A stretch of 64,000 nucleotides of DNA from Minisyncoccota bacterium (GTDB taxonomy: Bacteria; Patescibacteriota; Minisyncoccia; 2-02-FULL-40-12; GWA2-44-9), in assembly GCA_035620375.1 (NCBI GenBank), contig DASPGX010000028.1:2974-66973 (forward strand). The letters run 5' to 3'. Below, one piece after another: positions 9,839-52,600 of the stretch. The notes below the pieces were generated by a model that saw nothing but the letters and a program-made list of their open reading frames with translations, was not told where the DNA came from and made no database searches. The translations under genes and the position numbers were made by a program. Within the stretch, counting starts at the first letter, position 1; each line of letters begins with the position of its first letter.

Positions 9839-9865
9839 ATAGCCAATCAGTTCCATTCCTATTAA

Positions 9866-11364
<1,499 letters not shown>

Positions 11365-25230: not shown

Positions 25231-25281
25231 ATTCTACCACAAAGAGGCCCCGAAGGGCCTCTTTGTATGCTGACCGAGAAA

Positions 25282-25737
25282 CTACCGGACGACTTCGATG
25301 GTCTCGCCGAGTTCGGCGAACGGGGCGCGGACGTTAATCCGTCCGTTCGCGTCGCGGTACACCTGATAGCCGGTGGAGGCGACGGTGCCGTTCGTGGTCG
25401 GGTCAACGACCATCGTGGACAGGTACGTCGGTTGGACGCACGCCGCGAGGTCGAAGTTACCGGAACCCGAGCCGACAACCGTGTAGGTGCTCGGCAACGC
25501 CGGACAACCGCCCGTGGTGGGCCAGTTACCGCGGTTGTCAGCCAACCGCTGACCGATGGCGTTCAGCACGGTGTTAATGTTGCTCCAGCGCTGACTGTTC
25601 CGCGCCTGGGCGAACTGCCGGGCGGGGTTCAGAGCCACGATAACGACCGCGGCCAGGATGGCGATGATACCGATGACGACCAGAATCTCGATAAGGGTGA
25701 AACCCTTACGGGTCCGGCCGATATTCCCTCTTTTCAT
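25282..25737 (-). CDS. Type IV pilin (major pilin candidate)
   Basis: Class III signal KGFTLIEILVVIGIIAILAAVV (G/FTLIE prepilin cleavage/methylation motif). Confidence 0.8.
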   Translation of the reverse strand: MKRGNIGRTRKGFTLIEILVVIGIIAILAAVVIVALNPARQFAQARNSQRWSNINTVLNAIGQRLADNRGNWPTTGGCPALPSTYTVVGSGSGNFDLAACVQPTYLSTMVVDPTTNGTVASTGYQVYRDANGRINVRAPFAELGETIEVVR

Positions 25738-25882
25738 GTATGAATGTGTTGGTTAGTGAAATACGAAGATACTGTCTGGGGCGCCATGCATGGAGCGTCC
25801 CAGCTCCTATCGACCATAGGCACTATTGATTATACCAGCCGCAGCATCGGCGGTTATCCACACGAATTGAAGCTGATTGCCG

Positions 25883-27325
25883 TCATTTTATCTCGTTCCA
25901 GTTGATGGGAGTGTAATAGCTGGAGGTCTTGGGGAAACTCGGAGGAGGATAAAACAGGAGATTGGGGTCGTAGATGATGATGCGTTGCTGGTACCCGGTG
26001 CCGTCGCTCCAGGCGAATCCGTACCGCTCTTCAGAGCCGATCATCCCGTAGAGCGTGATTTTCTGGCGGACGTGGTTGGGAGAGCACCGTGGCTGGTTGC
26101 CGGAGGGCGGCCGGTAGTAGTAGCGGCCGACCCGGTTGCTCTGCGCCAGGAGCGCACCGTCAATCCGCAGGTCGTCCTCGCTGTCCCATCCGGCATTCAC
26201 ATTGCCCTGGGCTACGAGCGAAATAATATCCTGACCGTCGTAGTTCGTGTACAAAAGGTCCCGGTTGACGGTTATGTGCATCCGGTGGGCGGGATTTTCC
26301 GGGAAACGCCCTGTCGCAATGGTAATCCGGGCCGTATTTATCTGTCCGTCAATCCACACGTGGTCTTCAATGAAGATTATGCCGTTGTCCGGGAACGGAT
26401 AGTTACCGAGAAAGGTTTCGTCTTCAATGCTCCAGGTGTCCCAGTCCTGCTCGCCCAGAACGCTGACGCATCCGTTGGGCGCCTTGATGGTATCCGTCAC
26501 GTCGTAGAGGTCGAAGGTGTCGTTTGTTTTCAGGATGATGTGGTAGCCCTTGTTGCCGACCGTGTTCCGGTAGAAGCCGTCTGCTTGAGCGCTGGCTTTC
26601 AGGTTGGCGAGGTCCTGAGAGAGTCCGGCGAAATCGATGGGCGGAACGGGGAACTGTCTGCCTGCCTTGAAGACGTCCGGGCGGTTCGGCACGGCTGCAG
26701 GGGGGAGCGGGTCCTGCGGCGCGACGTGGGTATGGACGCCGAATTCATCCTGCCCGCTGTGGTCGGGGTCGTTGAACTCGGCGACCGCGCTGGTGACGAG
26801 ATTATGCGCGATGCCGTCGATGCGGACTCCGGAATTCGAGTGGACCGGTCCGAAGATTTCCGAGCCGGGCCCGAAGAACACGTACGAGCCGATGATGGCG
26901 GAGTATTTTGCGAAGGACGGAATGTCCATCTGTGCCTCAATGATTTTCTCGGCGTCCGGATTCACGGTCAGCGTCCCCGTAGACCGGATGGTCAGGAGCG
27001 TGGAGCCCGTTGCCGGAGGCGAAATATCGAGCGTGAACGTTCCGATGAGATTTCCGTCTTTATCGCGGTAGTCATGGACGTACGGCCCCGGAGCGCCGGT
27101 GCCGTCCTGGTAATCCTTGGGCGCATGCGCCAGGTGCCACCGGTAGTATTCAATGCCGGCCTCCGCGATGAGAAAGGCCTGCTCGGCGTCGCTGTCGCGC
27201 CACACCAGCCGGACGTTCGTGTCCGCCCACAGCACGAAGCCGGTCAGGATAATGATGGAAACCGCGCTGAAAATCAGAACCTGTACCGCAATCTGGCCCT
27301 TGTTCCGGTATCCGGTCATGCTCAT
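25883..27325 (-). CDS. Large PilX-like minor pilin / pilus-associated protein (480 aa)
   Basis: N-terminal hydrophobic PilX_N-like segment GQIAVQVLIFSAVSIIILTGFVLWA followed by a large extracellular domain. Overlaps the next gene by 4 nt. Confidence 0.5.
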   Translation of the reverse strand: MSMTGYRNKGQIAVQVLIFSAVSIIILTGFVLWADTNVRLVWRDSDAEQAFLIAEAGIEYYRWHLAHAPKDYQDGTGAPGPYVHDYRDKDGNLIGTFTLDISPPATGSTLLTIRSTGTLTVNPDAEKIIEAQMDIPSFAKYSAIIGSYVFFGPGSEIFGPVHSNSGVRIDGIAHNLVTSAVAEFNDPDHSGQDEFGVHTHVAPQDPLPPAAVPNRPDVFKAGRQFPVPPIDFAGLSQDLANLKASAQADGFYRNTVGNKGYHIILKTNDTFDLYDVTDTIKAPNGCVSVLGEQDWDTWSIEDETFLGNYPFPDNGIIFIEDHVWIDGQINTARITIATGRFPENPAHRMHITVNRDLLYTNYDGQDIISLVAQGNVNAGWDSEDDLRIDGALLAQSNRVGRYYYRPPSGNQPRCSPNHVRQKITLYGMIGSEERYGFAWSDGTGYQQRIIIYDPNLLFYPPPSFPKTSSYYTPINWNEIK

Positions 27326-27927
27326 ATTTCGCCCCTCAAATTACGGATGGTCGCGTCAATTGACTGCGTGAATCCTGCGGGCGGAAGCGTGGGGTCGTCG
27401 TCGACGGTGACGCGCATCCGGATGAGGCGTATCTGTGCGACCGGAACCGGCGCGGAGAGCGAGGCGGTGTTCCCGGTCCATGACAGCCCTTCCCAGTACG
27501 CAAAGATGTCCGGCCCTGGTACGACGGAGGTGATGACGTCCCGCACCTGTTCATCCACGGCAGGATACGTGGCCGGGTTTCCCGTCGGCTCGGTGACGCC
27601 TTTCCGTATCGTCGTTCCGTCCAGGAAGTACCGGATTTGTTCGAACGTTCCGTCTGCGTCCACGTCGGCATAGAACGTGATGCCGTTCGCCGCGGCGGCG
27701 GCAATCGGATAGCTTCCGTTCTCCGAGATGCTCATGGAACGCGCCTCCGAGATGAACGTCCGGAGCGTCCGCTCGACCCCGCGCTCCGAATCCAGCCGGC
27801 TCCCCAGGAGTGTGCCGAAAAAGTTCACGTCGAGGGCGAAATACGTGGCAAGCGTCATGACGCCGGTCGCGACGGCGATGGTGATGAGCAATTCCAGGAT
27901 TGTGACGCCGCGGCGGTGCATCGTCAT
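27322..27927 (-). CDS. Minor pilin / pseudopilin with prepilin-type N-terminal methylation domain
   Basis: RRGVTILELLITIAVATGVM. Confidence 0.65.
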   Translation of the reverse strand: MTMHRRGVTILELLITIAVATGVMTLATYFALDVNFFGTLLGSRLDSERGVERTLRTFISEARSMSISENGSYPIAAAAANGITFYADVDADGTFEQIRYFLDGTTIRKGVTEPTGNPATYPAVDEQVRDVITSVVPGPDIFAYWEGLSWTGNTASLSAPVPVAQIRLIRMRVTVDDDPTLPPAGFTQSIDATIRNLRGEI

Positions 27928-29717
27928 GGATTCAGGGGAACGGTAATACCCTGCCAGTCAGCGATAACGGGAACCTCCGCATTGTAATCGGAGAAACCGG
28001 ACTTTGTGACGGTGAGCGTGTACGTATCATTGGCAAGGCCGCTGAAGAACGCGTTTCCGCCGGGCAGGCATCCGGCGCGGTAGGTGATGCCGACCGCTTC
28101 CAGAGAGGGAGTGGCGTCCTGGTCCAGCGTCCGCATTTCTACCCGGTACCGGAGATAGCGGTTACCGTTGTGCAATGTGGGAAGGTTTCCGCCGGCGCCG
28201 GTATAGAAGGTTGCCGGAGTGCCGTCGGGCCCCGCATAGACCCAGGTAGCGTTGTCGTTGTTCGTGGCAATCTGGAGCCGGACGCTGTCGGTTCCGGTTT
28301 CGGACGGCTGGGACGACGGCGTCATGCCGGCCGAGAAGAATGAGATGCTCGCCGTCCCGAAATCGACGGTTTCCGATTCCAGCCACGCATAGCTTCCCGT
28401 TGCGTGGGGCCCGCCGGGCGGAATGAGCGTAAGTACGCCCGCAGAGGCGGTGTATATTCCGCCGCTCTGCTGGCTGAACTGGCCGCCGCTCCAGTCGCTT
28501 TGGGACCAGGTATTGCGTCCGCTGACGACCGTGACGTCGTACGCGCCGCTGGCAAGGCGCACCGCCGCGTCGTTTAACGGTGTGCCGCCCGGGCCGGTAA
28601 CCGTGACGAGCAGTGACGAGGGGTCCTTCGGCGCCATCAGCCAGGTGACCGCAAGTGACGAACCCGGATTAAGGGTGAACGGCGAGGGATGGCTGGTCCC
28701 GGCGATATCCCACGAAGCGTCCGTGGATCGGGCCGTGAAACTGTCCCATTCCAGCGGTGAGACCGACACGGTGCCGCCGGCGCCGGTCTGGTGCGAAACG
28801 GAGTATTTGGGGATATCCGGAGCGGAGCCGATGAGTTTGGAACCGGTCAGGAGAAAGTCAACGCCTGGTACGGTGCCGCACACCGCGCTCCGCGAGGTGA
28901 AGGCGACGTCACCCGTTACGTCGATGGAAAACGTCGCCACGGTCAGCTGCTCCGCAACGATGGTCAGGTCGGGCTTTGCGGGGTTCGGGTTCGAAGGCTC
29001 GCCGGGCGGATACGTGCGGTCCGTAGAGTAGCCCGCCTTGGTGACGGTCACCCGGTAGCCCGCGGAATCGGTCGCCAGGCCAATGAGCTGAAGGAGGCCG
29101 TCCGCATCCGAAGTGTCCGTGATGTTGACGGCGGGGGTCACTCCCGTGTTGGTGACCGTGATGGTCGCACCCGGCAGTGCGATACCCGAGCCGTCCAGAA
29201 CGCGCACCAGGAGGTACCCGGTCTTCGACGGGTCTTCCAGGTTGCGCGGAGCCAATGTCGTGGTCATCCGGATATCCGAGAACCGCGGGCATGAGGCACA
29301 CAAGATGCGCAGTTCGATGATTTTGTAGTCCGCCGGGTCGGTATCGCCCGGGGTGCCGTCCAGGAGGCCATCGAAGGGGTCGTCAATGTTCCTGACCGTC
29401 GTTTCGACGGTGAACGGCACGCCGCCCACGGTGACCGCCTTGGACGGCGGAAGCAGTCCGGGCGGCACGCCGCCGACCGTGCCGACGTCCTCGTAGCGCA
29501 TATTTCTGATAATCTCCACCTCGGATTCTATGATGTTTGCCGCCGTCGCGTGGTATTGTCCCGCAGTCACGATGTCGAGCGTGTTGCTGTACGACAGATA
29601 CAACCCCGAAGAAACAATGACCAGGATGGTCATGCCGATGAGCGTTTCCAGCAACGTAAAACCGGCCGGGACGCATCCGGCTTTTGTGCGGCCGTCCGTC
29701 GGTGCAAGTTTTCTCAT
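27924..29717 (-). CDS. Giant minor pilin (597 aa) with prepilin-type N-terminus
   Basis: AGFTLLETLIGMTILVIVSSGLYLSY followed by ~550 aa of beta-rich, T/S/G-rich extracellular domain. Confidence 0.6.
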   Translation of the reverse strand: MRKLAPTDGRTKAGCVPAGFTLLETLIGMTILVIVSSGLYLSYSNTLDIVTAGQYHATAANIIESEVEIIRNMRYEDVGTVGGVPPGLLPPSKAVTVGGVPFTVETTVRNIDDPFDGLLDGTPGDTDPADYKIIELRILCASCPRFSDIRMTTTLAPRNLEDPSKTGYLLVRVLDGSGIALPGATITVTNTGVTPAVNITDTSDADGLLQLIGLATDSAGYRVTVTKAGYSTDRTYPPGEPSNPNPAKPDLTIVAEQLTVATFSIDVTGDVAFTSRSAVCGTVPGVDFLLTGSKLIGSAPDIPKYSVSHQTGAGGTVSVSPLEWDSFTARSTDASWDIAGTSHPSPFTLNPGSSLAVTWLMAPKDPSSLLVTVTGPGGTPLNDAAVRLASGAYDVTVVSGRNTWSQSDWSGGQFSQQSGGIYTASAGVLTLIPPGGPHATGSYAWLESETVDFGTASISFFSAGMTPSSQPSETGTDSVRLQIATNNDNATWVYAGPDGTPATFYTGAGGNLPTLHNGNRYLRYRVEMRTLDQDATPSLEAVGITYRAGCLPGGNAFFSGLANDTYTLTVTKSGFSDYNAEVPVIADWQGITVPLNP

Positions 29718-30826
29718 CGTCCGAGTGACTGACTGATTTTGTAGATTGGCGTGATGATGGAAATGGCGACGAAACTTACGACCAATCCCATGGCCAGAAG
29801 CAGGAGCGGTTCCAGGATGTTGCTCATGGTCTTCGTCGCACCGTCCAGCTCGGACTCATAAAATGTTGCGAGGAATTCGAAGGTCTCGTCCAGCTTTCCC
29901 GTGCTTTCGCCGACGTTTGCCATTTGCGAGAACGTCGGCGGGAAGAATTCCGGACGTTCGATCATCAGCTTGCTCATCGTCTGACCCTGCTGGACCTCCT
30001 TCGCGATATCCTCCATCTGCTGCTGGTAGACCAGGTTCGTCAGCGACCGTCCGGAAATATTGATTGCTTCCACGATGCGGACGCCGCCTTTCAGAAGCAG
30101 GTTCATGGTGCGGGCCACGGTTATGATGTTGACGTCCATCACCATTGAGCCCACGAGGGGCATCCGGGTGAGCGAGCGGTGCCAGGCGAACCGGACCGCG
30201 CGTATGCGGAGCAGGAACATCCAGCCGATGCCCAGCACAACCAGTCCCAGAATCACCCAGAGGCCGTTGGCAATCATGAATTCGGAGAACGCGATGAATA
30301 TCCGCGTGGTCAGCGGAAGTTCCACATTGAGCGAGTTGAGCACGGGAAGGATGCGCGGAAAAATGAAGAACGTCATGATTCCCGTGATGCCGAACGTCGC
30401 CACGAGGATGACGATGGGGTAGACCATCGCGCCGACGACTTTCTTCTGCAGTTCCGCCTTCTTTTCCAGTTCCTGGGCAAGGTATTTGAAGTTCTCCGAC
30501 AATGTGCCGGACGTTTCACCGACCCGGACCAAGTTGATGATGAAATCGCCGAACACCTGCTTGTACCGTTCCATGCCGACCGAGAGGTAGTGGCCGTTCT
30601 TCACGTCGGCTATGAGGCTGTCCAGCACCTTCAGGAACGGACGGGACTTGGTCTGCTTCCGGAGAATTTCCAGCGATTCCAAAACCTGAAGTCCCGAGCG
30701 CGTCATCATCTCCATATGGCGCGCAAACAGCATCTTGTCTTTCAGGGACAGCCTGAAGAACAGGCTGCTGAAACCGCCCAGACTGCCGCCCTCGGTTTTC
30801 GGGGGTGTTTCGGTTCCGTTACTCAT
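29714..30826 (-). CDS. pilC: Type IV pilus assembly platform protein PilC (GspF family)
   Basis: Two T2SSF repeats and three TM segments. Overlaps both neighbours. Confidence 0.85.
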   Translation of the reverse strand: MSNGTETPPKTEGGSLGGFSSLFFRLSLKDKMLFARHMEMMTRSGLQVLESLEILRKQTKSRPFLKVLDSLIADVKNGHYLSVGMERYKQVFGDFIINLVRVGETSGTLSENFKYLAQELEKKAELQKKVVGAMVYPIVILVATFGITGIMTFFIFPRILPVLNSLNVELPLTTRIFIAFSEFMIANGLWVILGLVVLGIGWMFLLRIRAVRFAWHRSLTRMPLVGSMVMDVNIITVARTMNLLLKGGVRIVEAINISGRSLTNLVYQQQMEDIAKEVQQGQTMSKLMIERPEFFPPTFSQMANVGESTGKLDETFEFLATFYESELDGATKTMSNILEPLLLLAMGLVVSFVAISIITPIYKISQSLGR

Positions 30827-32570
30827 GAATGACGCGGAGGATTTCTTCGATGGTCGTCAGTCCCTTCAGCGCTTTCTGGAACCCGTCTTCCAGAAGCGTG
30901 GTCATGCCGTTCTTGATGGCGATTTTCTTGATTTCGCTCGCGTCGGCGTGGCGCATGATGGCTTCGCGGATGAAATCGTTGACCTCCAGGATTTCATAGA
31001 TGCCCATCCGGCCCTTGTACCCCGTATGACCGCACATGTCGCAGCCCTTGCCGATGTAGAAGTCGCGGTGGTCATCAAGGATTTCCGGGGTCAGGGAATC
31101 CTTCAGCGACATGAACTCTCCTTCGGTAATGCGCCGCGGCTCCTTGCAGTTCTCGCAAATCATGCGCACCAGCCGCTGGCCCATCGCCACGTTCACCGTG
31201 GATGCGACCAGGAACGGCTCGACGCCCATATCCAACAGGCGCGGCAACGTCGTTGCGGCGTCGTTCGTGTGCAGGGTGGACAGGAGCTTGTGGCCCGTCA
31301 GAGCCGCGTTGACGGCGATGGACGCCGTCTCTTCGTCGCGGATTTCGCCGACCATGATGATGTTCGGGTCCTGCCGGAGGATTGAACGCAGGCCGGCGGC
31401 GAACGTCAGTCCGGTGCGGTTGTTCACCTGAATCTGGTCGATGCCCTCCAGGGAGTACTCGATGGGGTCTTCAATCGTGATGATGGACACTTCGCGCGTG
31501 GAGAGTTCCTTGAGGATGGTGTACAGCGTCGTCGTTTTTCCGGAGCCGGTCGGTCCCGTCGCCAGAATCATGCCGTACGGCGTCTTCACCGCCTTGCGGA
31601 CCTTTTTCCGGTCGGCCTCGCTCAACGCCACGTCGTCCAGCGAATTGAGCTTGGTCTGTTCGGCCAGGAGCCGCAGGACTGCGTTCTCGCCGTAGTAGGT
31701 CGGGACGATGCTGACGCGGACGTCGAACTGCCGGTCGGAGTCCTGCATGCTGATGCGGAACCGGCCGTCCTGTGCCGCCTGGTGTTCGTCGGTCCGCATC
31801 GCACCCAGGACTTTGATGCGGGAGATGATGCCCGGATGGATGCCCTTGGGGAACGTGAACGAATCGCGCAGGATGCCGTCGATACGCAGGCGCGCGAGGA
31901 GGTTTTCTTCGGTCGGCTCAAGATGAATATCCGAAGCACGCGTGAGGAACGCGTATCCCATGAGCGTGTCCACGAGCGCGATAATCGATATCTCGGCTTC
32001 CGGCTTCGTGACAATCTGCTGAATCCGGTCTTTGAGGTCCTGAATCTGTTTGGGGTCCGCTCCCGCGACGTCCGACAAATCTTTGGGCTCCTTCGCGGAA
32101 GCCTTCGCTTTTCCGTTCCGTGCGGATTTCTTCGCGGGTTCCGTTTCGGGGGGCGCGGCCGGCGCCGGTCCGCCTCCTTTGGCCAGCCGCTGTGCCTCGG
32201 CGACGATATCGGAAACGGTGATGTCCCGCTTGACCATCACGGACTCAATGCCGCACGTTTGCGCCCGTTTGCGTTCGTTCTCGTCGTCCTTGTCGAACAG
32301 TACCAGCGCGGGGATGTGCCTCTCCTTTCTGGCGTCTTCGACGAGCTTGCAGTAGTCACCGCCCTCGTGGAGCGGAACGTCCACGACCAGCGCGTCCGGC
32401 GCGTTCTTCTTGAGCATCTGGCGCGCCTCATCGTCGGACGATGCGTGCGACGCCTCAAGCTCCGCCTTCTTGAGGCGTTCCATGAGCAGTTGTGCCATGA
32501 AAAAATTGTCCTCAACGAGGAGGACCCGTCTGCCGCCCGTAGTAGTAGTCCCGTTCTTCCGTGCCGACAT
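30819..32570 (-). CDS. pilB: Type IV pilus assembly ATPase PilB/GspE with N-terminal receiver (REC)-like domain
   Basis: Walker A GPTGSGKTTT, Asp box, His box and tetracysteine CxxC...CxxC (CENC...CDMC). The first ~120 aa (RRVLLVEDN...LVVDV...VMVKRD) resemble a CheY-like receiver. Confidence 0.85.
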   Translation of the reverse strand: MSARKNGTTTTGGRRVLLVEDNFFMAQLLMERLKKAELEASHASSDDEARQMLKKNAPDALVVDVPLHEGGDYCKLVEDARKERHIPALVLFDKDDENERKRAQTCGIESVMVKRDITVSDIVAEAQRLAKGGGPAPAAPPETEPAKKSARNGKAKASAKEPKDLSDVAGADPKQIQDLKDRIQQIVTKPEAEISIIALVDTLMGYAFLTRASDIHLEPTEENLLARLRIDGILRDSFTFPKGIHPGIISRIKVLGAMRTDEHQAAQDGRFRISMQDSDRQFDVRVSIVPTYYGENAVLRLLAEQTKLNSLDDVALSEADRKKVRKAVKTPYGMILATGPTGSGKTTTLYTILKELSTREVSIITIEDPIEYSLEGIDQIQVNNRTGLTFAAGLRSILRQDPNIIMVGEIRDEETASIAVNAALTGHKLLSTLHTNDAATTLPRLLDMGVEPFLVASTVNVAMGQRLVRMICENCKEPRRITEGEFMSLKDSLTPEILDDHRDFYIGKGCDMCGHTGYKGRMGIYEILEVNDFIREAIMRHADASEIKKIAIKNGMTTLLEDGFQKALKGLTTIEEILRVIHE

Positions 32571-43700: not shown

Positions 43701-45689
43701 ATGGATATTTTCCTCGTATCTCTCATCGCGGCGGTTGTTGCGCTTGTGTATGGCGCGTTTCTTGCATGGACCGTACTGAAGCAGCCTGCGGGTGATGAGC
43801 GTATGCAGAGCATTGCGCGCGCCATTCAGGAGGGTGCGTCTGCATATCTGAAGCGCCAGAACCGGACCGTCATCATCGTGGGCGTGCCGGTAACGGTCGC
43901 ACTGTACTTCCTGCTCGGATGGGGCACGGCCGCCGGGTTCGTCGTCGGCGCGTTCGCTTCCGCGCTTGCGGGCTGGCTCGGCATGGCGGTGGCGGTACGC
44001 GCGAATGTCCGCGTCGCGGAGCAGGCGAAGTACGGCATGGCCCCGGCGTTCTCCCTGGGATTTAAGGGCGGTGCGGTCACCGGATTCGCGGTGGTCGGTC
44101 TCGCCCTGCTCTCGCTGACCGTTTTCTATTGGCTCACCGGTGACGTCATTGCGTTGATTGGCCTCGGTTTCGGCGCCTCGCTTATCTCGGTCTTTGCGCG
44201 TTTGGGCGGCGGCATCTTCACCAAGGGCGCCGACGTCGGCGCCGACCTGGTGGGCAAGATTGAAGCGGGAATCCCCGAAGACGACCCGCGAAATCCGGCG
44301 GTTATCGCCGACAACGTCGGCGATAATGTCGGCGACGATGCGGGCATGGCAGCGGACCTCTTTGAAACATACGTGGTCTCGGCGATTTCCGTCATGCTCC
44401 TGACGCATCTTCTGCTTCCGCAGTTCCCCGAACTGGTCAAACTTCCTCTGCTCATCGGCGCCGCCGCGGTCGTCGCGTCCGTCGTCGGTTCGTTCTTCGT
44501 GCGTCTGCGGGGAAGCATCATGGGTGCGCTGTACCGCGGCGGCATCGTGACGGCCGGCGTCGCCGCCGCGCTGTTCTGGGCGATGACGAAGTATGCGCCG
44601 GTCATTACCGAACTCGGCGAAGAGGCGGGCACGGTAATCTTTTGGTCGCTTATCATCGGTATCGCGGTCACCGCGTTGATGGTTCTCATCACCGAGTACT
44701 ACACGTCCAAGCGGTTCCGCCCTGTCCGTGCCATCGCTGAGGCGAGCACCACGGGCCATGGCACAAACGTCATCATGGGACTGGCCATGAGCATGCAGGC
44801 CACGGCGCTTCCGCTGGTCGTCATCGGCGGGGCCATGCTCGGTGCGTACCAGCTTGCCGGTCTGTACGGCATCGCACTGGCGACCATGAGCATGCTGTCG
44901 CTGACGGGTATGGTCGTCGCCATTGATGCGTTCGGACCCATCACCGACAATGCCGGCGGCATCGCGGAGATGGCGAAGCTTCCCCAGGAAGTCCGCGACG
45001 TCACCGACCCGCTGGACGCGGTCGGAAACACGACCAAGGCGGTCACCAAGGGGTACGCCATCGCGTCGGCCGGCCTTGCCGCGCTGGTGCTGTTCGCCGC
45101 CTACACGCAGGAACTGCAGGCCGCGGGCCGGTTCGTACTGTTCATGCTTGCCGATGTGCGCGTGCTCGTCGGCCTGCTCATCGGCGGCATGATGCCGTAT
45201 CTGTTCGGCTCGTTCGCGATGCAGGCGGTTTCCAAGGCGGGCTCGGCGGTCGTGGACGAAGTTCGCCGTCAGTTCCGCGAGAAGCCCGGCATCATGACCG
45301 GCACCGACAAGCCGGATTACGGTTCGGCCGTGGACATCGTCACTAAGGCGGCCATCCGCGAAATGATTATTCCGGCGCTCATTCCGGTCGTCTTTCCCAT
45401 CGCCGTCGGTTTCCTGCTGGGGCCTGAGGCGCTCGGCGGTCTGCTGGTCGGAACCATCGTGACGGGTCTGTTCGTCGCCATCTCCATGACCTCGGGCGGT
45501 GGTGCATGGGACAACGCGAAGAAATACATTGAAGAGGGCAATCACGGCGGCAAGGGCTCCGACGCCCACAAGGCCGCAATCACCGGAGACACCGTGGGCG
45601 ACCCGTATAAGGATACGGCAGGGCCGGCGATTAATCCGATGATTAAAGTCGCCAACATTGTGGCTCTCTTGATAGCCCGCTTCATCTAA
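43701..45689 (+). CDS. hppA: Membrane-bound H+(or Na+)-translocating pyrophosphatase
   Basis: [33 protein letters not shown] and DNAGGIAEM signature blocks. 662 aa and multi-TM. Confidence 0.95.
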
Positions 45690-45744: not shown

Positions 45745-46512
45745 ATGACGAACGGAGCTCCGGATTTCGCGCAACGTCAGTCCATTCCGTCCGTGCCGGC
45801 CGCCCAGCCGCGGCACGCAGCGAACATCGGAAGCGTGCGCGATGTCATGACGACCGACGTGCTCGCCATCGCTGCCGACGACACGCTGGATATCGTGGCG
45901 GGTCTCTTTGAGAAGTACGACTACGACGGCATGCCCGTCGTGGACGCCGGCTACAAACTGCTCGGCGTGATTACGGCGTACGACATGGTCCTGCAGTCCT
46001 CCGGCATGCACCTGCCGACGGTTATCGGCATCATGGAGAACATCGCCAAGGGGAAGGGCGACCGCCGCCAGCTGGACGAGCAGTTCGGCAAACTCAAGGA
46101 GATTTCGGCGACCAGCATCATGAACACCAAGCCGCTGACCGTCGGCCCCGACGCGCCGCTCTCCGATGCCGCCGGACTCTTCGCCCAGCACCCCAAGGTC
46201 AACCCGCTCTGCGTCGTGGACGCCCAGGGCAAGCTCGTCGGAGTCATTTCGCGCTATGACATCCTGAAATTCTTCAACGAGAAGTATTTCAACAAGGTCG
46301 TGCAGGACGTGAACGAGGGCGATCCGTTCAAGGCGTTTCCGACCCGTTCCGCCCGCAAGGCCGAGGAAGCGCTGGGCGAGGTGGAGAAGGAGTTTTTGCT
46401 GGTGACCAAGCGGCGTCCGCTCATCTGGAAGTACGTGGCAATTGCCATGTTCGCCGCGGGCCTTATCGTCGCCACAGCGTTGATTATCCGCATCGTGCAG
46501 CGGGGCGGATGA
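45745..46512 (+). CDS. CBS-domain pair protein with C-terminal TM helix
   Basis: Two CBS repeats (VRDVMTTDVLAI..., TSIMNTKPLTVGP...) and a terminal hydrophobic helix. Confidence 0.6.
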   Translation: MTNGAPDFAQRQSIPSVPAAQPRHAANIGSVRDVMTTDVLAIAADDTLDIVAGLFEKYDYDGMPVVDAGYKLLGVITAYDMVLQSSGMHLPTVIGIMENIAKGKGDRRQLDEQFGKLKEISATSIMNTKPLTVGPDAPLSDAAGLFAQHPKVNPLCVVDAQGKLVGVISRYDILKFFNEKYFNKVVQDVNEGDPFKAFPTRSARKAEEALGEVEKEFLLVTKRRPLIWKYVAIAMFAAGLIVATALIIRIVQRGG

Positions 46513-46535: not shown

Positions 46536-46578
46536 CCAAATTTTAACGGCTCACTTGGTGAGCCGTTAAAATTTGATT
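46536..46578. repeat. Intergenic palindromic element copy 3 (core AACGGCTCAC-ttg-GTGAGCCGTT)
   Basis: ccaaattttaacggctcac-ttg-gtgagccgttaaaatttg(a). The core has a compensatory T-to-C / A-to-G change that keeps pairing. Lies between convergent genes. Confidence 0.6.
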
Positions 46579-46592
46579 GGCCGGTCTGCGCG

Positions 46593-46721
46593 CTACTTAT
46601 TCACCTGCTTCCAGAGCCAGGCGATGAGCAGGGCGCCGATGACGACGAGCTCAATCTGGAACAGTGACCCGAAGACGAGTCCGCCGCCCCAACCGCCCAT
46701 CATGCCTTCATATCCCATCAT
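46593..46721 (-). CDS. Candidate 42-aa Met/Gly-rich single-TM mini-protein immediately downstream of copB
   Basis: Minus-strand ORF MMGYEGMMGGWGGGLVFGSLFQIELVVIGALLIAWLWKQVNK. Too short for the ORF track. Mx2-3M motifs resemble Cu(I)-binding Met motifs. Confidence 0.3.
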   Translation of the reverse strand: MMGYEGMMGGWGGGLVFGSLFQIELVVIGALLIAWLWKQVNK

Positions 46722-46737
46722 GGATGAAGATATTAGG

Positions 46738-48861
46738 TTAGTACAACGACTGCCGCTTCAATAATACCGCATTGAACGCAACGATGACCGTGGACACCGA
46801 CATCAGAATTGCCGCCACGGCCGGTTGGAGCAGAATGCCCCGTGATGCCAATACTCCCGCCGCCAGCGGTATAGCGACGATGTTATATCCTGCCGCCCAC
46901 CAGAGATTCTGGACCATTTTCGCATAGGTCAGGCGCGAGAGCCGGACGATGCGCGGGATATCGCGCGGGTCGTTCCGTACGAGGATGATGCCCGCGGACT
47001 CTATGGCGACGTTCGTTCCCGCACCGATGGCGATTCCGACGTCGGCCTGCGTCAGGGCCGGCGCGTCATTGATGCCGTCACCGACCATGGCAACCTGCGC
47101 TCCGCGCGCCTGCAGCTCCCTGACCCTTGCCGATTTCTCATCAGGTTTGACGCGGGCGAAGTACTCGTCAATCCCGAGTTCCTCGGCGACCCAGGATGCG
47201 ACCTCGTCCGCATCCCCGGTCACCATGGCGACCTTCACCCCGAGCTGTTTCAGCTCGGCCACCGCTTCACGGGATTCGCGGCGGATGACGTCTGCGAACG
47301 CAAATGCACCGATGAACGAGCCGTCGTGGAGTACATAGATTACGGTTTTTCCCTTGGACGCTTCCGCCTTCATGGCCGCCTGCAGTTCCGCCGGTATATC
47401 CTGGGTCCCAATGACGCCGTGTCCGCCGATAGTGATGTCAGAGCCGGAAACGCGTGCCTGAGAACCCTTCCCGGGCAAGCGTCGGAAATCTTCAGCATCG
47501 GGAAGCGTGATGCCCATCTCCTGCGCTCGCGCGACAAGCGCCTTCGCAATGGGGTGCTCTGACCGCGCATCCGCAGCAGCGCCGAGCATGATGAGCGTCC
47601 GCTTATCCGTTCCGGGCGCCGGCCAAGCATCCGTCATGCCGTATGTGCCCGTCGTCAACGTCCCGGTCTTATCAAACAGGACCGTGTCAATACTCCGTGC
47701 GGCCTCCAGTGCGAGGCGCTGGCGGACGAGGAAACCATTCTGCGCGGCCTTCGTGGTGGAGATGGATGCGACCAGCGGAACGGCAAGTCCCAGCGCATGC
47801 GGGCAGGCGATGACCAGCACCGCTACGAAGCGTTCCACGGCGAATCCCGCACCTGCGCCGGCGGCGAGCCATCCCGCAAGCGTCGTGGAGCCTCCGATGA
47901 CCGCGACATAGGTGAGCCACAGTGCGGCACGGTCTGACAGTATCTGAAGCCGGGACTTGGATGCCTGCGCCTCGGCGACCAGGCGCATAACGCCGGCCAG
48001 GAAGGTATGCTCTCCGATAGCTTCTACGCGGACGGTGAGCGGACCGTCACCGTTGACCGTACCGGCGATGACCATATTGCCCCTTGTCTTCGGTACCGGC
48101 CGTGATTCGCCGGTTGCAAGCGATTCGTTCACGTCGGAATTCCCTTCGGTTACCTGTCCGTCCGCGGGAATCTTTCCTCCCGGCCGTACGAGGACAAGGT
48201 CGTCCTTCGTAAGTTCACTGAGCGGAATTTTTACAGTTCTTCCGTTCCGGATAATCTCCGCAGTGTCCGGCAAAAGTTTCGACAACTCCTTCAATGCGCC
48301 TTGTGCGCCCTTGACCGCGCGCATCTCCAGCCAGTGGCCCAGAAGCATGACGGTGATAAGCGTGGCAAGTTCCCAGAAAAGGGTTTCCGTATTGCCCAGG
48401 AGCGTATTGACCGCGCTGTAGCCGAACGCCGCGGTGATGGCGATGGCGATGAGGGTCATCATACCCGGCAGACGGGCACGCAGCTCGCGCCATGCGCTGG
48501 CCAGGAAGACCCATCCTCCGATGAAGAAGATGAGCGTGCCGAGCGCGGCGGGAACATATGCTGAGCCGGGGAAGTCCGGAGGCGACCAGCCGGTGAGCGT
48601 CGGAACAATATCCGAGTAGAGGACCACGGGAATGCTCAATATGAGCGATGTCCAGAACTTCCGTTTGAATGCATCGGTGCTGTGGCCGGCGTGCTTGCCG
48701 TGTACGCCGGCTGCCCCCTCGTGCGCCCGCTCATCGGGTGAGGCGGGAACAAGGCTCATTCCGCATTCGGGGCACATGCCCGGCCGTTCCTGGCGGATTT
48801 CCGGGTGCATGGGACACGTATAGTCTTTCGTGTGCATGATGATTGGGATTATACCCCGCAC
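46738..48861 (-). CDS. copB: Copper-translocating P1B-type ATPase, CopB-like (CPH motif) with N-terminal CxxxHP...CPxCGM metal-binding domain
   Basis: N-terminal YTCPMHPEIRQERPGMCPECGM. TM6 reads ACPHALGLA (CPH). DKTGTLT phosphorylation site. GDGINDAP hinge. Confidence 0.9.
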   Translation of the reverse strand: MRGIIPIIMHTKDYTCPMHPEIRQERPGMCPECGMSLVPASPDERAHEGAAGVHGKHAGHSTDAFKRKFWTSLILSIPVVLYSDIVPTLTGWSPPDFPGSAYVPAALGTLIFFIGGWVFLASAWRELRARLPGMMTLIAIAITAAFGYSAVNTLLGNTETLFWELATLITVMLLGHWLEMRAVKGAQGALKELSKLLPDTAEIIRNGRTVKIPLSELTKDDLVLVRPGGKIPADGQVTEGNSDVNESLATGESRPVPKTRGNMVIAGTVNGDGPLTVRVEAIGEHTFLAGVMRLVAEAQASKSRLQILSDRAALWLTYVAVIGGSTTLAGWLAAGAGAGFAVERFVAVLVIACPHALGLAVPLVASISTTKAAQNGFLVRQRLALEAARSIDTVLFDKTGTLTTGTYGMTDAWPAPGTDKRTLIMLGAAADARSEHPIAKALVARAQEMGITLPDAEDFRRLPGKGSQARVSGSDITIGGHGVIGTQDIPAELQAAMKAEASKGKTVIYVLHDGSFIGAFAFADVIRRESREAVAELKQLGVKVAMVTGDADEVASWVAEELGIDEYFARVKPDEKSARVRELQARGAQVAMVGDGINDAPALTQADVGIAIGAGTNVAIESAGIILVRNDPRDIPRIVRLSRLTYAKMVQNLWWAAGYNIVAIPLAAGVLASRGILLQPAVAAILMSVSTVIVAFNAVLLKRQSLY

Positions 48862-49823
48862 GCGCCTCCGCTGCGACCTTGGACCGGTTCAACTTCGCTC
48901 AAGATGTTCCGGTAGCCGGTTCCGCTGGAGAACTGTGCGCCCAGAAGTTCACGGGGGTCAGCTGACTCCCAGGTCCGCCCCTTCATGTCCAGGTATTTTG
49001 CGATGGTCAGGTACGTGTCGGGGAACCAATACGCGTTCACCTGCAGGGCGACGCGGTACATCTCCTCCTCGCCCGCGCCGTTCGCGGCCATCAGTTCCAA
49101 CAGGCCCAGCATCGCCATGCCGTGATTACAGTCGGGGAAGTACGTGGAATTCCCGCAGCACGGGCGGTAGACGTTTCGCGCAACTGATTCCACGAGGGCC
49201 TGCTGTTCCGAGGTCAGTTTCACGTAGCGGTGTCCGGAATAGTGGTCCATCGCGTCGCCCACGGCGATGCTCCAGCCGCCCGTCGAAGCAAACCGGCCCG
49301 CACCGCCGTATTGGGGGTCCGTCATCGGACCTTCTTCAAGAACGGGATTTGTGTTCGCCAGCCCGAACGCCCAGAGCAGGTTCAGGATGATTCCCGCGTT
49401 GTTGGCGTCCATGCGGATGGTGTCGGCCCGTCCCTCCAGGAGGGTCCGTTCGTAGGGATTCAGACCTCCGCGCGACTCATACAAGGCTTCAAATGCCTGC
49501 CGGTCAATGACGCCGTCGGCGACCATCCGGGCGCCCAGGTCTCCCCATGAGATGGGCAATGCAATGCCGTCCCGGGGAAGGACCGTCTCCTCGAATGCGG
49601 CGCTTTCAGGCGCCGTCGTACGGTCACCCCGCGGGGCGTACGGCAAAAGCCACGCGCCGCCTATGACGGCGGCCCCGGCCAGTGCGCCGAACAGAAACGT
49701 CGTCATCGGTTTCGGTGCCGGCCGTTGCGCGCCGGACGCGGAGGAATGTTCCGCGCAATGTTCATTAATTCTCTCTGACTGCAGATTCCCGCCCTCGGCT
49801 GATTCATGGTGCATACAATGCAT
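48849..49823 (-). CDS. Hypothetical exported protein with His/Cys-rich N-terminus and CCGNSTYFPDCNHGMAM cluster (putative metal-binding)
   Basis: MHCMHHESAEGG...EHCAEH, then a hydrophobic signal-like helix. Several internal Cys/His/Met clusters. Sits inside the copper/redox island. Confidence 0.4.
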   Translation of the reverse strand: MHCMHHESAEGGNLQSERINEHCAEHSSASGAQRPAPKPMTTFLFGALAGAAVIGGAWLLPYAPRGDRTTAPESAAFEETVLPRDGIALPISWGDLGARMVADGVIDRQAFEALYESRGGLNPYERTLLEGRADTIRMDANNAGIILNLLWAFGLANTNPVLEEGPMTDPQYGGAGRFASTGGWSIAVGDAMDHYSGHRYVKLTSEQQALVESVARNVYRPCCGNSTYFPDCNHGMAMLGLLELMAANGAGEEEMYRVALQVNAYWFPDTYLTIAKYLDMKGRTWESADPRELLGAQFSSGTGYRNILSEVEPVQGRSGGACGV

Positions 49824-49832
49824 GGTGGTGAT

Positions 49833-50201
49833 TTAACAACATTCCTTGAGCTTTCGTTCCGCTTCCGCGACGGACCAGTTCCTCACCGTCCCCGGATGTC
49901 CGCGTCGCTCCGTGAACGCGACGGTGATGAGCGCGGCTCCTATCACGGCCAGGGCCGCGAAATGCCATGCCTGAACGGCGGCCGCATACGCGGCGGCCAG
50001 ACCGGCAGGAACGAAGACCAGCATGAAGGCCGTGCGGCGTGCCGCCGCCGTGCGCTCACGGAGCAGATAGGCGATGCCGACCGCGGAACCGCCTATCAAT
50101 GTAGCAATGAGCGCGGCATCCACGGCATGACCGTCCGCCCGCCAGAGCAACAGCGCAATCCAGGTACCCGAGACGATAGTGCATATCGGACAGATTTTCA
50201 T
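49833..50201 (-). CDS. Small multi-TM membrane protein ending in Cys-Cys
   Basis: MKICPICTIVSGTWIALLLW... has three hydrophobic helices. This start abuts the ccdA stop. C-terminus ...KLKECC. Confidence 0.35.
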   Translation of the reverse strand: MKICPICTIVSGTWIALLLWRADGHAVDAALIATLIGGSAVGIAYLLRERTAAARRTAFMLVFVPAGLAAAYAAAVQAWHFAALAVIGAALITVAFTERRGHPGTVRNWSVAEAERKLKECC

Positions 50202-50203
50202 GG

Positions 50204-50983
50204 TCAGAGGATAAGGATGAGTACGCCCAGTCCGAGCATGGCGATTCCCGTCCACAGCCGCATTGACCGGACATTGGACTTCTTCCATGCCTCCAGCCGT
50301 TCCACGACCGTCCGGTTCCCCGCGATGGCGAGAACAACCAGGAGCGGGAATACGAAGACCGCATTGTACAACAGGAGATAGCTGAATCCTTTCAGATAGG
50401 TCGCCGAATCATGCAGGAGCCCGAGCACCATCAGGTACGGGCCGCCGGTGCAGGGGAATTCGCAAAGTCCGACCAGCGCGCCGAGTCCGAACGCGGCGGG
50501 TAGCGACGCCCGGCCCATCAGTTCCGCCATCTTCCGGTGCGCCGCATGCGGCACGCGCAGTTTGATGGGGAATGCGGGGAAGAACTCATTGACGATGTTC
50601 ACGATGCCCCAGGCGATGAGCAAACCCGCGCCGACCTTCCCCATGAAATGGGGCGTGTTGAACAGGTGGAGGGTGCCCAGGAGTCCGAGTCCGATGGCCA
50701 GATAGGAGAGGAAGATGCCTGCCACGTACGCTCCGCCGACGGCGAACAGGCGCCCGCGCACCACCCCGAGCCCCAAGAGGACCGCGATGGTTACCAGGAG
50801 GATGGCGAACGCGCACGGATTGATGCTGTCCAGGAGCGCCGAGATGAGTACAAGCGGAAGCAGGACCGTTCCGCCGTCGCTGATGCTCCATGCGAACCGT
50901 GTTCCGAGGTCGCCGCGGAGGAACAGGACGACTGCGGCAAGCGCGACAGCGGCGCTGATTGCAGCGATGAGTTTCCGGTTCAT
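50204..50983 (-). CDS. ccdA: Cytochrome c-type biogenesis / thiol-disulfide electron transporter CcdA (DsbD family)
   Basis: SINPCAFAIL (first redox Cys) and LCEFPCTGGPY (second) with 6 TM helices. Confidence 0.8.
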   Translation of the reverse strand: MNRKLIAAISAAVALAAVVLFLRGDLGTRFAWSISDGGTVLLPLVLISALLDSINPCAFAILLVTIAVLLGLGVVRGRLFAVGGAYVAGIFLSYLAIGLGLLGTLHLFNTPHFMGKVGAGLLIAWGIVNIVNEFFPAFPIKLRVPHAAHRKMAELMGRASLPAAFGLGALVGLCEFPCTGGPYLMVLGLLHDSATYLKGFSYLLLYNAVFVFPLLVVLAIAGNRTVVERLEAWKKSNVRSMRLWTGIAMLGLGVLILIL

Positions 50984-50984
50984 G

Positions 50985-51482
50985 CTACGGGGTCACGTTC
51001 GCCGTGAACGAAACGACGACGGGTGTGCCCGCATCGTTTTCCATGGTGACCGTGCGTTGTATCGGTCCGACGCCCGACGGGCCGTGTGCGGCCGGGTCAA
51101 ACGTGATGATGAGCGAGGCGGTATCCTGCGGAGCGACGGATGCGTTGACGCGGGGGATGAATCCGTGCCCGAGCATTCCGTACGGTCCGTACTTGCGTCC
51201 GGCATGGTCAAGGGAGACTGACGTGCACATGCATGACGTGTACGTCTTGCCGAGGGTTACCGATGAGGCGCCGGTATTGGTGACCGCTATGCGGTGCCGG
51301 ACGGTTCCGGCGGCCATGGAGATGGTTCCGAAGTCAAACGACGTTTCCGACGGTTCCAGGGGACCAGGAGCGGCGATATCCGACATGGGCGTCGCCAGCG
51401 GAGTACCGCCGGGACGCGCCGCCCATGCCAGAATCCCGGCGGCCGCCAGGGTTCCGATAAGGACGAAGAGGATTGTTTTCAT
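50985..51482 (-). CDS. DUF1573-domain secreted protein
   Basis: Signal peptide, then FDFGTISMAAGTVRHRIAVTNTGASSVTL...SCMCTS, which follows the DUF1573 consensus. Confidence 0.6.
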   Translation of the reverse strand: MKTILFVLIGTLAAAGILAWAARPGGTPLATPMSDIAAPGPLEPSETSFDFGTISMAAGTVRHRIAVTNTGASSVTLGKTYTSCMCTSVSLDHAGRKYGPYGMLGHGFIPRVNASVAPQDTASLIITFDPAAHGPSGVGPIQRTVTMENDAGTPVVVSFTANVTP

Positions 51483-51567
51483 GATGCATGGTGGGTTGAT
51501 ACGACAAACAAACCCCGGAAGGGGTCTGTGGACGCACGCCGAAGGAGGGATACGTTTCCGGCGTGCG

Positions 51568-51967: not shown

Positions 51968-52534
51968 TCATGATTTCAGTGCGTGAACCAGTCGGATTTC
52001 GCAGTCCTTGAAGACTGCTTTGAGCGTTTCCTGTTCCTTCGGGGTGAACTTTTTGAGCACGTAGTCGCGTACCCATTCGTCGCGCTTTTTGTCGGATTGT
52101 GCGCGGGCCTTGTCCAAGGCGCGGGAACCAAGACCGATGCGCACGCGCCAGAACTTCTTGGTCTTCAGCGCAGACATGATGCTCTCCACCCCGCGGTGTC
52201 CGCCGGAGTTCTTTTCAAAGGAGAGTTTGCAGTTGCCGAAGGGGATATCCAGGTCGTCCTGAACGACGACGACATCCTCGTTCTTCGCCTTCGCCCAGCG
52301 CTTTGCCGCCGCGGCGGTCTGTCCGGATTTGTTCACGTACGTCTGCGGTTTGACCAGCCATGTCTTGATGCCGTCCACCTCGCACTTGGCCGCCTGCGCA
52401 AAAATCTTCTTCTCGTCCGTGAAGTCCGCGCCTTTGTGCTTCTTGATGAGCCAGTCCAAAAATTGCCAGCCGACGTTATGGCGGGTGGCGAGGTACTCTT
52501 CGTCCGGATTGCCGATGCCGATGATGAGCTTCAT
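51968..52534 (-). CDS. pth: Peptidyl-tRNA hydrolase
   Basis: MKLIIGIGNPDEEYLATRHNVGWQ... Confidence 0.85.
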   Translation of the reverse strand: MKLIIGIGNPDEEYLATRHNVGWQFLDWLIKKHKGADFTDEKKIFAQAAKCEVDGIKTWLVKPQTYVNKSGQTAAAAKRWAKAKNEDVVVVQDDLDIPFGNCKLSFEKNSGGHRGVESIMSALKTKKFWRVRIGLGSRALDKARAQSDKKRDEWVRDYVLKKFTPKEQETLKAVFKDCEIRLVHALKS

Positions 52535-52600
52535 ATACGGGAGTATAGAAAAGCGCGCGGAAAAAGAAAACGGCCGCCAGGCGGGCTGGCGGCCGTGGGC

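Follow-up and report, generated by a model that had tools for sequence, protein, structure and literature searches.

The Scs system (ScsABCD) of Salmonella, Proteus, and Caulobacter is encoded by a copper-linked operon, in which the DsbD-superfamily protein ScsB keeps ScsC and ScsD reduced. One envelope thiol protein of the system binds Cu(I) tightly, and copper tolerance is tied to envelope redox (PMC10907172, PMC3322552, PMC8900818). In Staphylococcus aureus, the copB-copL pair (copBL/copXL) combines a P1B-3 pump carrying a CPH motif with the gene for a membrane-tethered extracellular copper-binding protein (PMC10233261, PMC5947656). Here we describe an operon in a 64,000-nucleotide stretch of DNA from a Minisyncoccota bacterium (assembly GCA_035620375.1, contig DASPGX010000028.1, positions 2,974 to 66,973), which is referred to as the window. 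Exact-sequence matches place it in a metagenome-assembled genome that carries the label Candidatus Paceibacterota. Eight tightly packed co-directional genes, from c4 through a gene for a 42-aa mini-protein, are closed by a hairpin (Table 1). They encode a P1B-type ATPase, the mini-protein, and five further proteins that all have invariant cysteine pairs, namely c4, a DUF1573 protein, a CcdA-like protein, a small membrane protein ending in Cys-Cys (CCmem), and a Cys/His-rich protein (CysHis). Our best explanation, to which we assign a probability of roughly 0.6, is a modular envelope operon found throughout the Patescibacteria, or Candidate Phyla Radiation (CPR), that couples copper defence to thiol maintenance. 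The theme of copper efflux plus envelope thiol maintenance is known, and here it is built largely from uncharacterised CPR-specific families. A literature search, limited in reach, found no description of this operon or of the CysHis family.

The window system resembles Scs as a copper-linked operon that appears to pair a membrane electron transporter with envelope thiol proteins. In the eight window proteins, however, Pfam and NCBIfam detect neither a thioredoxin-fold ScsC or ScsD nor an ScsB-type domain. The transporter is a minimal CcdA-like protein without the periplasmic domains of ScsB, the presumed clients (DUF1573 protein, c4, and CysHis) have unrelated folds, and the module is physically joined to a P1B pump. 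The window system is an analogue of Scs, not a member. As in copB-copL, the pump adjoins a gene for a tethered extracytoplasmic protein, and the cell has no outer membrane; but CopL is a DUF1541 lipoprotein, to which CysHis has no detectable similarity (no Pfam match), and the copBL operon lacks a thiol-reductant module. CopG (DUF411) is likewise an extracytoplasmic Cys-rich protein (CxCC) found beside copper pumps, and it fills the DUF1573/CcdA slot in related CPR loci, but it is absent from the window and has no sequence similarity to any window protein. The paired cysteines at membrane interfaces and the Cys-bearing flexible C-terminal tail may be regarded as analogous to the Mer relay for a thiophilic metal, although Pfam reveals no homology, and the direction of transport and the metal may differ.

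Recurrence of the cluster and its pump in related genomes

Scanning one genome per species gave at least 575 CysHis relatives. Eighty loci were kept, all from CPR-type metagenome-assembled genomes and all with CysHis on the plus strand, and their ORFs were clustered into families. Thirty-three of these loci are well flanked (at least 5 kb on both sides), and neighbours were counted in them within 5 kb on the same strand. A CcdA-like gene is present in 51 of the 80 loci, a P1B ATPase gene in 50, a DUF1573 gene in 46, and c4, which heads the conserved cluster, in 45. The corresponding numbers for the well-flanked loci are 27, 26, 23, and 24; pump and redox genes occur together in 22, and one has neither. 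The initial annotation, made from the letters of the window, had proposed co-occurrence with copB in related genomes as a check, and it is this adjacency of CysHis and a P1B ATPase that the 26 loci display. The recurrent order on one strand is c4, DUF1573, CcdA-like, CCmem or c8, (thioredoxin-like), CysHis, (c9 and c10), (DUF5676), and P1B ATPase. The grouping exceeds chance, and it recurs on a single strand in dozens of distant genomes.

The translation of the window ATPase carries DKTGT(LT), CPH (VIACPHALGLAV), GYNIVAIP, and MSVST (MSVSTVIVAFN). Pfam recognizes the E1-E2 and HAD domains (PF00122 at 3e-52 and PF00702 at 5.7e-37), and the model for copper-translocating ATPases, TIGR01511, gives 576 bits against a cut-off of 397. 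The CPH transmembrane motif and the N-terminal CPMHP...CPECGM module had both been pointed out before and are present, the latter being the HMBD domain PF19335 (42.2 bits, cut-off 23.6). The P1B-3 signature consists of CPH in the transmembrane helix that binds the metal, GYN(X)4P one helix further on, and MSXST in the final helix (PMC5552934), and the window ATPase has it in full, as expected of a CopB. With respect to a His-rich N-terminal domain, there is a short His-rich stretch, with only six histidines in the first 120 residues (ERAHEGAAGVHGKHAGHS), and the main module is HMBD, a zinc-ribbon-like Cys4 ribbon. The candidate start codons are GTG 48861 and ATG 48837. The sole indication of copper as the likely substrate is the curated model TIGR01511 together with these motifs.

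The neighbouring pumps of the related loci fall into three subtypes: CPH pumps with HMBD in 21 loci, and in the window as well, CPC pumps with an HMA domain in 18, and CPD pumps with HMBD in about 11, four of which were checked. As all three subtypes occur in the same kind of cluster, copper-type pumps seem to have been recruited repeatedly. The CPD pumps near CysHis have an HMBD N-terminus and MSASS in the last helix, and some possess long Cys/His-rich N-terminal extensions. A CPD subtype is mentioned in the literature as 'P1B-3a' (PMC5552934).

A CsoR-family regulator (PF02583, 82.8 bits) is encoded in 28 of the 80 loci. Regulators with the classical x-C-H-C fingerprint are found only beside CPC/HMA (CopA-type) pumps, and those with x-C-H-H in the other clusters; the two fingerprints may mean sensing of different metals or oxidation states. 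CopG/DUF411 together with c16 occupies 10–11 loci and never occurs with CcdA (Fisher p = 3e-6) or DUF1573 (p = 3e-5), which implies that the two modules are interchangeable. CopG is copper-induced and belongs to the CueR regulon of Vibrio (PMC12341060). Its substitution for the CcdA/DUF1573 module argues that this module serves copper handling. The constant companion of CopG/DUF411, c16, is a membrane protein with an AHCPLC motif and no Pfam family. Families c9 and c10, both without a Pfam family, are always paired (19 of 19 loci) and are placed between the genes for CysHis and the pump. One of the two is a membrane protein whose SCC-HY motif lies in a helix, and the other is exported and carries conserved TH and GGHHR motifs.

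The thiol proteins and the mini-protein

CysHis belongs to a large orphan family. A word-indexed search returned 5,546 homologues at E <= 0.001, all named 'hypothetical', and the best database matches are 52–67% identical and have no Pfam domains. The matches of an exhaustive profile search formed 720 clusters at 50% identity, of which 277 reached E <= 1e-30, so the profile check suggested for this protein recovers a large conserved family; Pfam and NCBIfam scans assign it to no family. The alignment defines a variable cytoplasmic N-terminal tail and a single transmembrane anchor, followed outside the cytoplasm by a helical domain of about 245 aa. The 24 homologues aligned, which come from several candidate CPR groups, are 52–63% identical. 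An invariant centre is formed by R220-P-C222-C223-x-N225...D231-C232-N233-H234-G235, to which C322 in a Gly-rich C-terminal tail is added. Among 117 representatives, R220, P221, C222, C223, N225, D231, C232, N233, H234, G235, A237, and L239 are conserved to at least 95%, and so are W151, G154, A179, G183, W184, L203, W266, G303, G104, and C322. A cysteine is found among the last eight residues in 113 of 116 sequences. We therefore describe the family by a transmembrane anchor or signal peptide, a helical domain with R-P-C-C-x-N-x5-D-C-N-H-G, and a Cys in the last eight residues; the window protein has all three.

The AlphaFold2 (AF2) model of CysHis has a predicted local distance difference test (pLDDT) score of 80, mostly above 90 within the domain. 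It is mainly helical, with lower confidence at the CC loop and the C-terminal tail. Foldseek found no match with E < 0.7 in PDB or BFVD, and a profile search of PDB sequences returned nothing. A fold is hinted at solely by a local similarity to the thiol oxidoreductase CcmH, which is not significant (probability 0.38). Both clusters that the initial annotation had seen in this protein are present, but the N-terminal one (MHCMHHE...EHCAEH) precedes the membrane anchor and is therefore cytoplasmic, and it is not conserved. On these grounds it was rejected as the functional metal site, and it is no part of an exported one; the invariant centre lies elsewhere. His-rich tails also occur in a few other members (P0093, L036, L052, and L007), and some members have an N-terminal multi-helix domain with a GCxVCG motif and weak similarity to c9. 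In the N-terminal extensions of longer homologues, the only known domain that Pfam scans recognized is a BNR propeller in P0214. In a high-GC, apparently non-CPR locus (L081), the CysHis homologue has a signal peptide and, at its C-terminus, a BNR/Asp-box propeller. A small c4-like ORF (HGDTHDVQH...CPGLC) precedes it, no pump is nearby, and glycine reductase genes are among the neighbours.

The small membrane protein ending in -CC, as initially annotated, is real, but its start is the internal MKICPIC. A database search with CCmem returned only itself and one relative, and one with the mini-protein only itself; because these searches were nearly empty, both families were studied via the 80 fetched loci. 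Over 20 sequences, CCmem has the invariant residues C4, C7, W14, G37, G42, C121, and C122, which include a CxxC (CPIC) opening the first helix and the C-terminal Cys-Cys. A single natural CCmem-CysHis fusion, P0130, is found in the canonical c4, DUF1573, CcdA operon of locus L084. It has four helices between CxxC and CC, and the CysHis anchor alone between the CC motif and the outer domain. By this helix count, all four CCmem cysteines most likely face the cytoplasm. CCmem is present in 21 loci and c8 in 19, with zero co-occurrence (Fisher p = 0.002); the two take the same operon slot and both terminate in Cys-Cys. From the fusion and this slot exchange, we infer that CCmem and CysHis form a partnership. 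The c8 protein, for which there is no Pfam family, is soluble and helical and combines an EGEtWC motif with the C-terminal CC.

The next gene had been called CcdA. What stands of this assignment is a pair of invariant Pro-Cys motifs, P56-C57 and P177-C178 (16 sequences), one in each half of the polytopic protein as in CcdA and DsbD. The best match, however, is not DsbD_TM but Pfam SfLAP (36.7 bits, cut-off 35), and the score against the NCBIfam DsbD model is 20.5 bits with a cut-off of 330. DsbD_TM (PF02683) is matched by six of the 16 family members, with a best E of 2e-6, and the PDB sequence profile search gave no match for the family, the solved CcdA included. We place the protein, as CcdA-like, in the DsbD/LysE superfamily. 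The DsbD alpha domain has an Ig fold, and the adjacent anchored, Ig-like DUF1573 protein with its redox-type Cys pair recalls this domain within the CcdA-ResA and DsbD systems, from which the window differs by having no cytochrome c maturation genes.

The conserved Cys pair of the DUF1573 protein was correctly noted: PF07610 matches with 40.6 bits (cut-off 26.1), and the motif is TSCMCT. Within the family, T-S-C-x-C-T is invariant, C84 and C86 being present in 52 of 52 sequences. The protein also matches a HYDIN/VesB-like Ig domain in Pfam and, weakly, the OS_HP2 (seleno)protein family in NCBIfam. Relatives of DUF1573 that contain selenocysteine, with a UGC motif, have been described (PMC9312934). 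A single-sequence AF2 model of low confidence (pLDDT 63) matches generic Ig/PapD-like sandwiches and does not distinguish the DsbD alpha domain from the copper chaperone PCuAC. The c4 protein, whose ORF is matched at E = 4.5e-14 by a hidden Markov model (HMM) of 45 syntenic homologues, has two helices and a His-rich extracytoplasmic loop with C-x9-C and a conserved His. C33, C43, and W116 are found in 46 of 46 sequences and H52 in 45 of 46. Pfam and NCBIfam give no match.

Downstream of the ATPase, the initial annotation had reported an unannotated 42-aa ORF with Met motifs and one transmembrane helix. The ORF is there, although it is annotated in the NCBI record as a hypothetical protein. It begins 16 nt past the ATPase stop and encodes a Met/Gly-rich N-terminus (MMGYEGMMGGWGGG), a transmembrane helix, and a basic C-terminus (LWKQVNK). 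We regard it as a real gene. That it is a chance ORF in the pump gene's 3' untranslated region appears unlikely, even though it is very short and of low complexity, returned itself alone in the database search, is not directly downstream of most orthologous pumps, and has no preceding Shine-Dalgarno motif. Such a motif is absent before every gene of the operon, so its absence here is uninformative. The same peptide architecture occurs in close relatives at distant GC, in L062 (directly after the pump), L074, and L002, whose genomes have 41–51% GC versus 62% here. Longer relatives carry signal peptides or Cys/His tails (L029, L033, L005, and L008), and others a SHOCT tail (L031, L003, and L079). 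After inspection downstream of pumps, all ORFs of at least 25 aa in the loci were searched with an HMM of the mini-protein, and 11 of the 12 matches, from genomes of 41–58% GC, lie within 200 bp of a core cluster gene. The pattern kept is MMGYG, a G/M-rich stretch, the transmembrane helix, and LW[KQ]Q[IV]NK. Hence the mini-ORF does have relatives that recur inside the clusters, contrary to the absence of conservation that the initial annotation would have counted against it.

The position of the hairpin (Table 1) bears on the same question. It folds with a minimum free energy of -28 kcal/mol (z = -5.6), which none of 200 shuffles equals, and it separates the convergent mini-ORF and CBS-domain gene; it is probably a bidirectional terminator closing the operon. 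As it sits past the mini-ORF rather than past the pump gene, the mini-ORF is within the transcription unit. The Met-rich N-terminus would face outward because of the positive-inside rule. Met clusters are classical Cu(I) ligands, and by analogy with PcoE/SilE and the 'Mets' of Ctr1 the N-terminus may bind copper. The N-terminus and transmembrane helix correspond to the N-terminal half of the SHOCT-tailed versions, but the window peptide ends right after the helix, has no Pfam match and thus no SHOCT domain (PF09851), and contains no His.

Copper defence, thiol chemistry, and competing readings

Combining these results, we propose that the CopB-type pump would export cytoplasmic copper, while the CcdA-like protein would move reducing equivalents across the membrane via its two Pro-Cys motifs. 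The DUF1573 protein (CxC), c4 (C-x9-C/His loop), and CysHis would be tethered extracytoplasmic thiol proteins held reduced in this way, and in the reduced state they may bind and hand off the expelled Cu(I), or undo copper-catalysed disulfides. CCmem would act as the membrane partner of CysHis, whose Cys-Cys, Cys, and His centre may be served by the Cys on a mobile Gly-rich C-terminal arm. The mini-protein, with its Met-rich N-terminus outside, could accept or buffer Cu(I) with low affinity close to the pump. The integrated copper and disulfide system with uncharacterised parts, as envisaged in the initial annotation, has good comparative support, but its biochemistry is deduced and several details had to be corrected. 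'Periplasmic' is doubtful in a CPR cell, for which 'extracytoplasmic' is safer. CPR bacteria make up a large share of bacterial diversity and their reduced genomes still keep the operon, which, along with the 52–63% identity of CysHis, argues for an important envelope function.

Several points weigh against coupled copper defence and thiol maintenance. The metal specificity is deduced from motifs, about one fifth of the well-flanked loci have no ATPase within 5 kb, and, different from CsoR-regulated copper operons, the 64-kb window contains no CsoR, CopG, or other copper regulator. Most of the CsoR-like regulators in the related loci are x-C-H-H and so closer to RcnR than to the Cu(I)-CsoR fingerprint x-C-H-C. 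The CcdA-like protein could instead be a LysE-superfamily small-molecule exporter, given that SfLAP is its best match and the DsbD cut-off is missed. Within CysHis, Met236 (76%) and Met238 (55%) are conserved but not invariant. Its Cys3-His(+Cys) site may just as well hold Zn in a structural role or be an active site of redox chemistry alone, and the very high conservation along all 245 aa of the domain suggests an enzyme rather than a metal sponge. For CCmem, the topology is derived from the fusion and helix counting.

Some of these points lead to the strongest competitor, which we consider improbable but deserving of serious attention. It holds that c4, DUF1573, CcdA-like, CCmem, and CysHis constitute a general extracytoplasmic thiol-disulfide pathway, reductive or isomerising, and that the pump is merely co-located or co-regulated since copper and thiol stress coincide. 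CysHis would then be a thiol-dependent enzyme with an Arg220-Pro-Cys-Cys active site, its C-terminal Cys resolving as a 'swinging arm' as in MsrA and thioredoxin reductase. The redox genes are linked to CysHis at least as tightly as the pump is (27 vs 26 of 33), and pumpless loci exist. The invariants of CysHis are R-P-C-C, D-C-N-H-G, three Trp, and the tail Cys, with Met residues varying; its whole-domain identity is enzyme-like, and the sole, non-significant fold hint is a thiol oxidoreductase. However, the window encodes no thioredoxin-fold partner for such a pathway, and the copper link is supported from several sides. CsoR-family regulators, three Cu-type ATPase subtypes, and CopG/DUF411, a copper protein that replaces the CcdA/DUF1573 module, have been recruited independently, as have the His-rich cytoplasmic CysHis tails and the recurring Met-rich proteins of the clusters. 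These observations favour copper defence coupled to thiol maintenance over a thiol pathway by itself.

It is less likely still that the system handles not copper but another metal, be it thiophilic or borderline (Ni, Co, Zn, Cd, Ag, or Hg), which CCmem and CysHis would relay between Cys pairs in the manner of Mer. The Mer proteins MerT, MerF, and MerA are characterised by vicinal CC pairs and C-terminal CC tails, and those of CCmem and CysHis recall them. The RcnR-like x-C-H-H fingerprint of most regulators and the presence of CPD pumps of unassigned specificity (PMC5552934) near CysHis point the same way. The window pump nevertheless shows every element of the P1B-3 signature and scores above the cut-off of the copper ATPase model, CPC/HMA CopA-type pumps with a classical x-C-H-C CsoR occur in the same cluster kind, CopG is present in related loci, and no window protein matches a Mer family in Pfam. 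Copper supply to an extracytoplasmic cuproenzyme instead of detoxification (Sco/PCuAC-like, or by CopB/CtpA-type assembly pumps) is very unlikely: P1B pumps can serve cuproprotein assembly and thioredoxin-like/Sco-like genes (Trx11 and Trx15) lie in some related clusters, but the 80 clusters share no conserved cuproenzyme gene, repressor-controlled pumps and CopG are typical of resistance systems, and nothing of the kind was found in the window.

Within copper defence coupled to thiol maintenance, a more specific proposal can be made, which we advance tentatively and with considerable doubt. CysHis with CCmem or c8 might be the core effector of a CPR-wide copper/thiol defence, with a fold and a mechanistic class that are both new. 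Through the membrane, a Cys4 site on the cytoplasmic face (CxxC plus C-terminal CC) would be linked to the extracytoplasmic Cys-Cys/Cys/His centre with its swinging C-terminal Cys. This centre would be a copper-thiolate hand-off station, or a copper/disulfide reductase fed by interchangeable modules (c4, DUF1573 plus CcdA, or CopG plus c16). If CysHis is indeed a copper-thiolate protein or a thiol-dependent enzyme, it would bring a new fold to bacterial metal and redox homeostasis and would account for the way in which cells that lack the usual CopZ, CueO, or Cus machinery withstand copper. In any case, four 'hypothetical proteins' (c4, CCmem, CysHis, and the mini-protein) become parts of a defined system with invariant residues, a fusion predicting a complex, and exchangeable modules.

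Limits of the operon and neighbouring features

Seven consecutive minus-strand genes had been listed initially, and all seven ORFs are found where they were placed. The conserved cluster, however, counts eight genes, as c4 had been missed, and the region extends to about 51951. Adjacent genes overlap or are separated by at most 16 nt, except for a single gap of 85 nt between c4 and the DUF1573 gene. The term 'island' is not appropriate, with a GC content of 0.617–0.618 here and 0.56–0.66 across the window; a horizontally acquired island was rejected, since there is no GC anomaly and the flanking genes are housekeeping. An Rfam scan found no regulatory RNA in the operon region, and a promoter scan no convincing site inside the operon. 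On the c4 side, pth is co-directional with c4, and a strong terminator-like site lies upstream of pth, after pepN. Hence pth probably shares the c4 transcript in this genome, yet it is outside the conserved cluster, as no pth homologue is near the cluster in the 80 related loci. Neither are pepN, the CBS gene, and the proton pyrophosphatase gene conserved nearby in these loci, bar one pyrophosphatase match. These non-conserved flanking genes mark the true limits of the unit.

Table 1. Positions of the operon genes, adjoining features, and examples from related loci (window coordinates unless a locus is named)
Feature	Position	Strand	Basis or remark
c4 family, small protein with two transmembrane helices	51568..51951	(-)	NCBI VD862_04620, 127 aa; HMM match
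DUF1573 protein, N-terminal membrane anchor and Ig-like beta-sandwich	50985..51482	(-)	Pfam PF07610
CcdA-like polytopic membrane protein	50204..50983	(-)	Pfam SfLAP; NCBI name 'GAP family protein'
CCmem, protein with four transmembrane helices ending in CC	49833..50201	(-)	NCBI VD862_04605, 122 aa
CysHis, 324-aa orphan-family protein	48849..49823	(-)	no Pfam/NCBIfam family
P1B-3 (CopB-type) heavy-metal ATPase, 707 aa	46738..48861	(-)	TIGR01511, PF19335, motifs
42-aa mini-protein	46593..46721	(-)	NCBI VD862_04590, 'hypothetical protein'
Perfect 19-bp hairpin, 16 nt past the mini-ORF stop	46536..46576		folding vs shuffles
Peptidyl-tRNA hydrolase gene (pth), 5 nt upstream of c4	51968..52534	(-)	ORF and spacing
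Terminator-like site upstream of pth	52570-52596
Gap between c4 and DUF1573 genes	51483-51567	(-)
Membrane pyrophosphatase-like ORF	43701-45689	(+)
Tandem-CBS protein	45745-46512	(+)
16S rRNA gene, complete	9860-11362	(+)	Rfam, 1373 bits
Co-directional gene run with pilin-like N-termini	23554-32570	(-)
Example gene with pilin-like N-terminus	25282-25737
CPD-type pumps	L077 5893-8130; L012 12212-14584; L043 16506-18860; L021 8252-10546		motif
x-C-H-H regulator, example	L078 10884-11156
x-C-H-C regulators	L002 3916-4173; L037 3088-3363; L058 3512-3793; L065 5470-5769
c8, example	L049 11635-12141
c16, example	L037 7502-8035
c9, example	L020 8376-8825
c10, example	L028 11213-11677
c4-like ORF and CysHis homologue of L081	362-685 and 820-2631		small c4-like ORF precedes

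The gap between c4 and the DUF1573 gene contains short GC-rich hairpins followed by a T-rich run (ACCCCTTCCGGGGTTTGTTTG), which could be an attenuator or internal terminator. On the other side of the operon, the membrane pyrophosphatase-like ORF and the tandem-CBS protein, which has a C-terminal transmembrane helix, both converge on the terminator. Elsewhere in the 64-kb window, the complete 16S rRNA gene is accompanied by no 23S or 5S match, and the rRNA genes appear to be unlinked. In the run of co-directional genes, several N-termini resemble those of type IV pilins (e.g. GFTLIEILVVIGIIAIL); judging by the sequence, this is probably a cluster for pili or competence.

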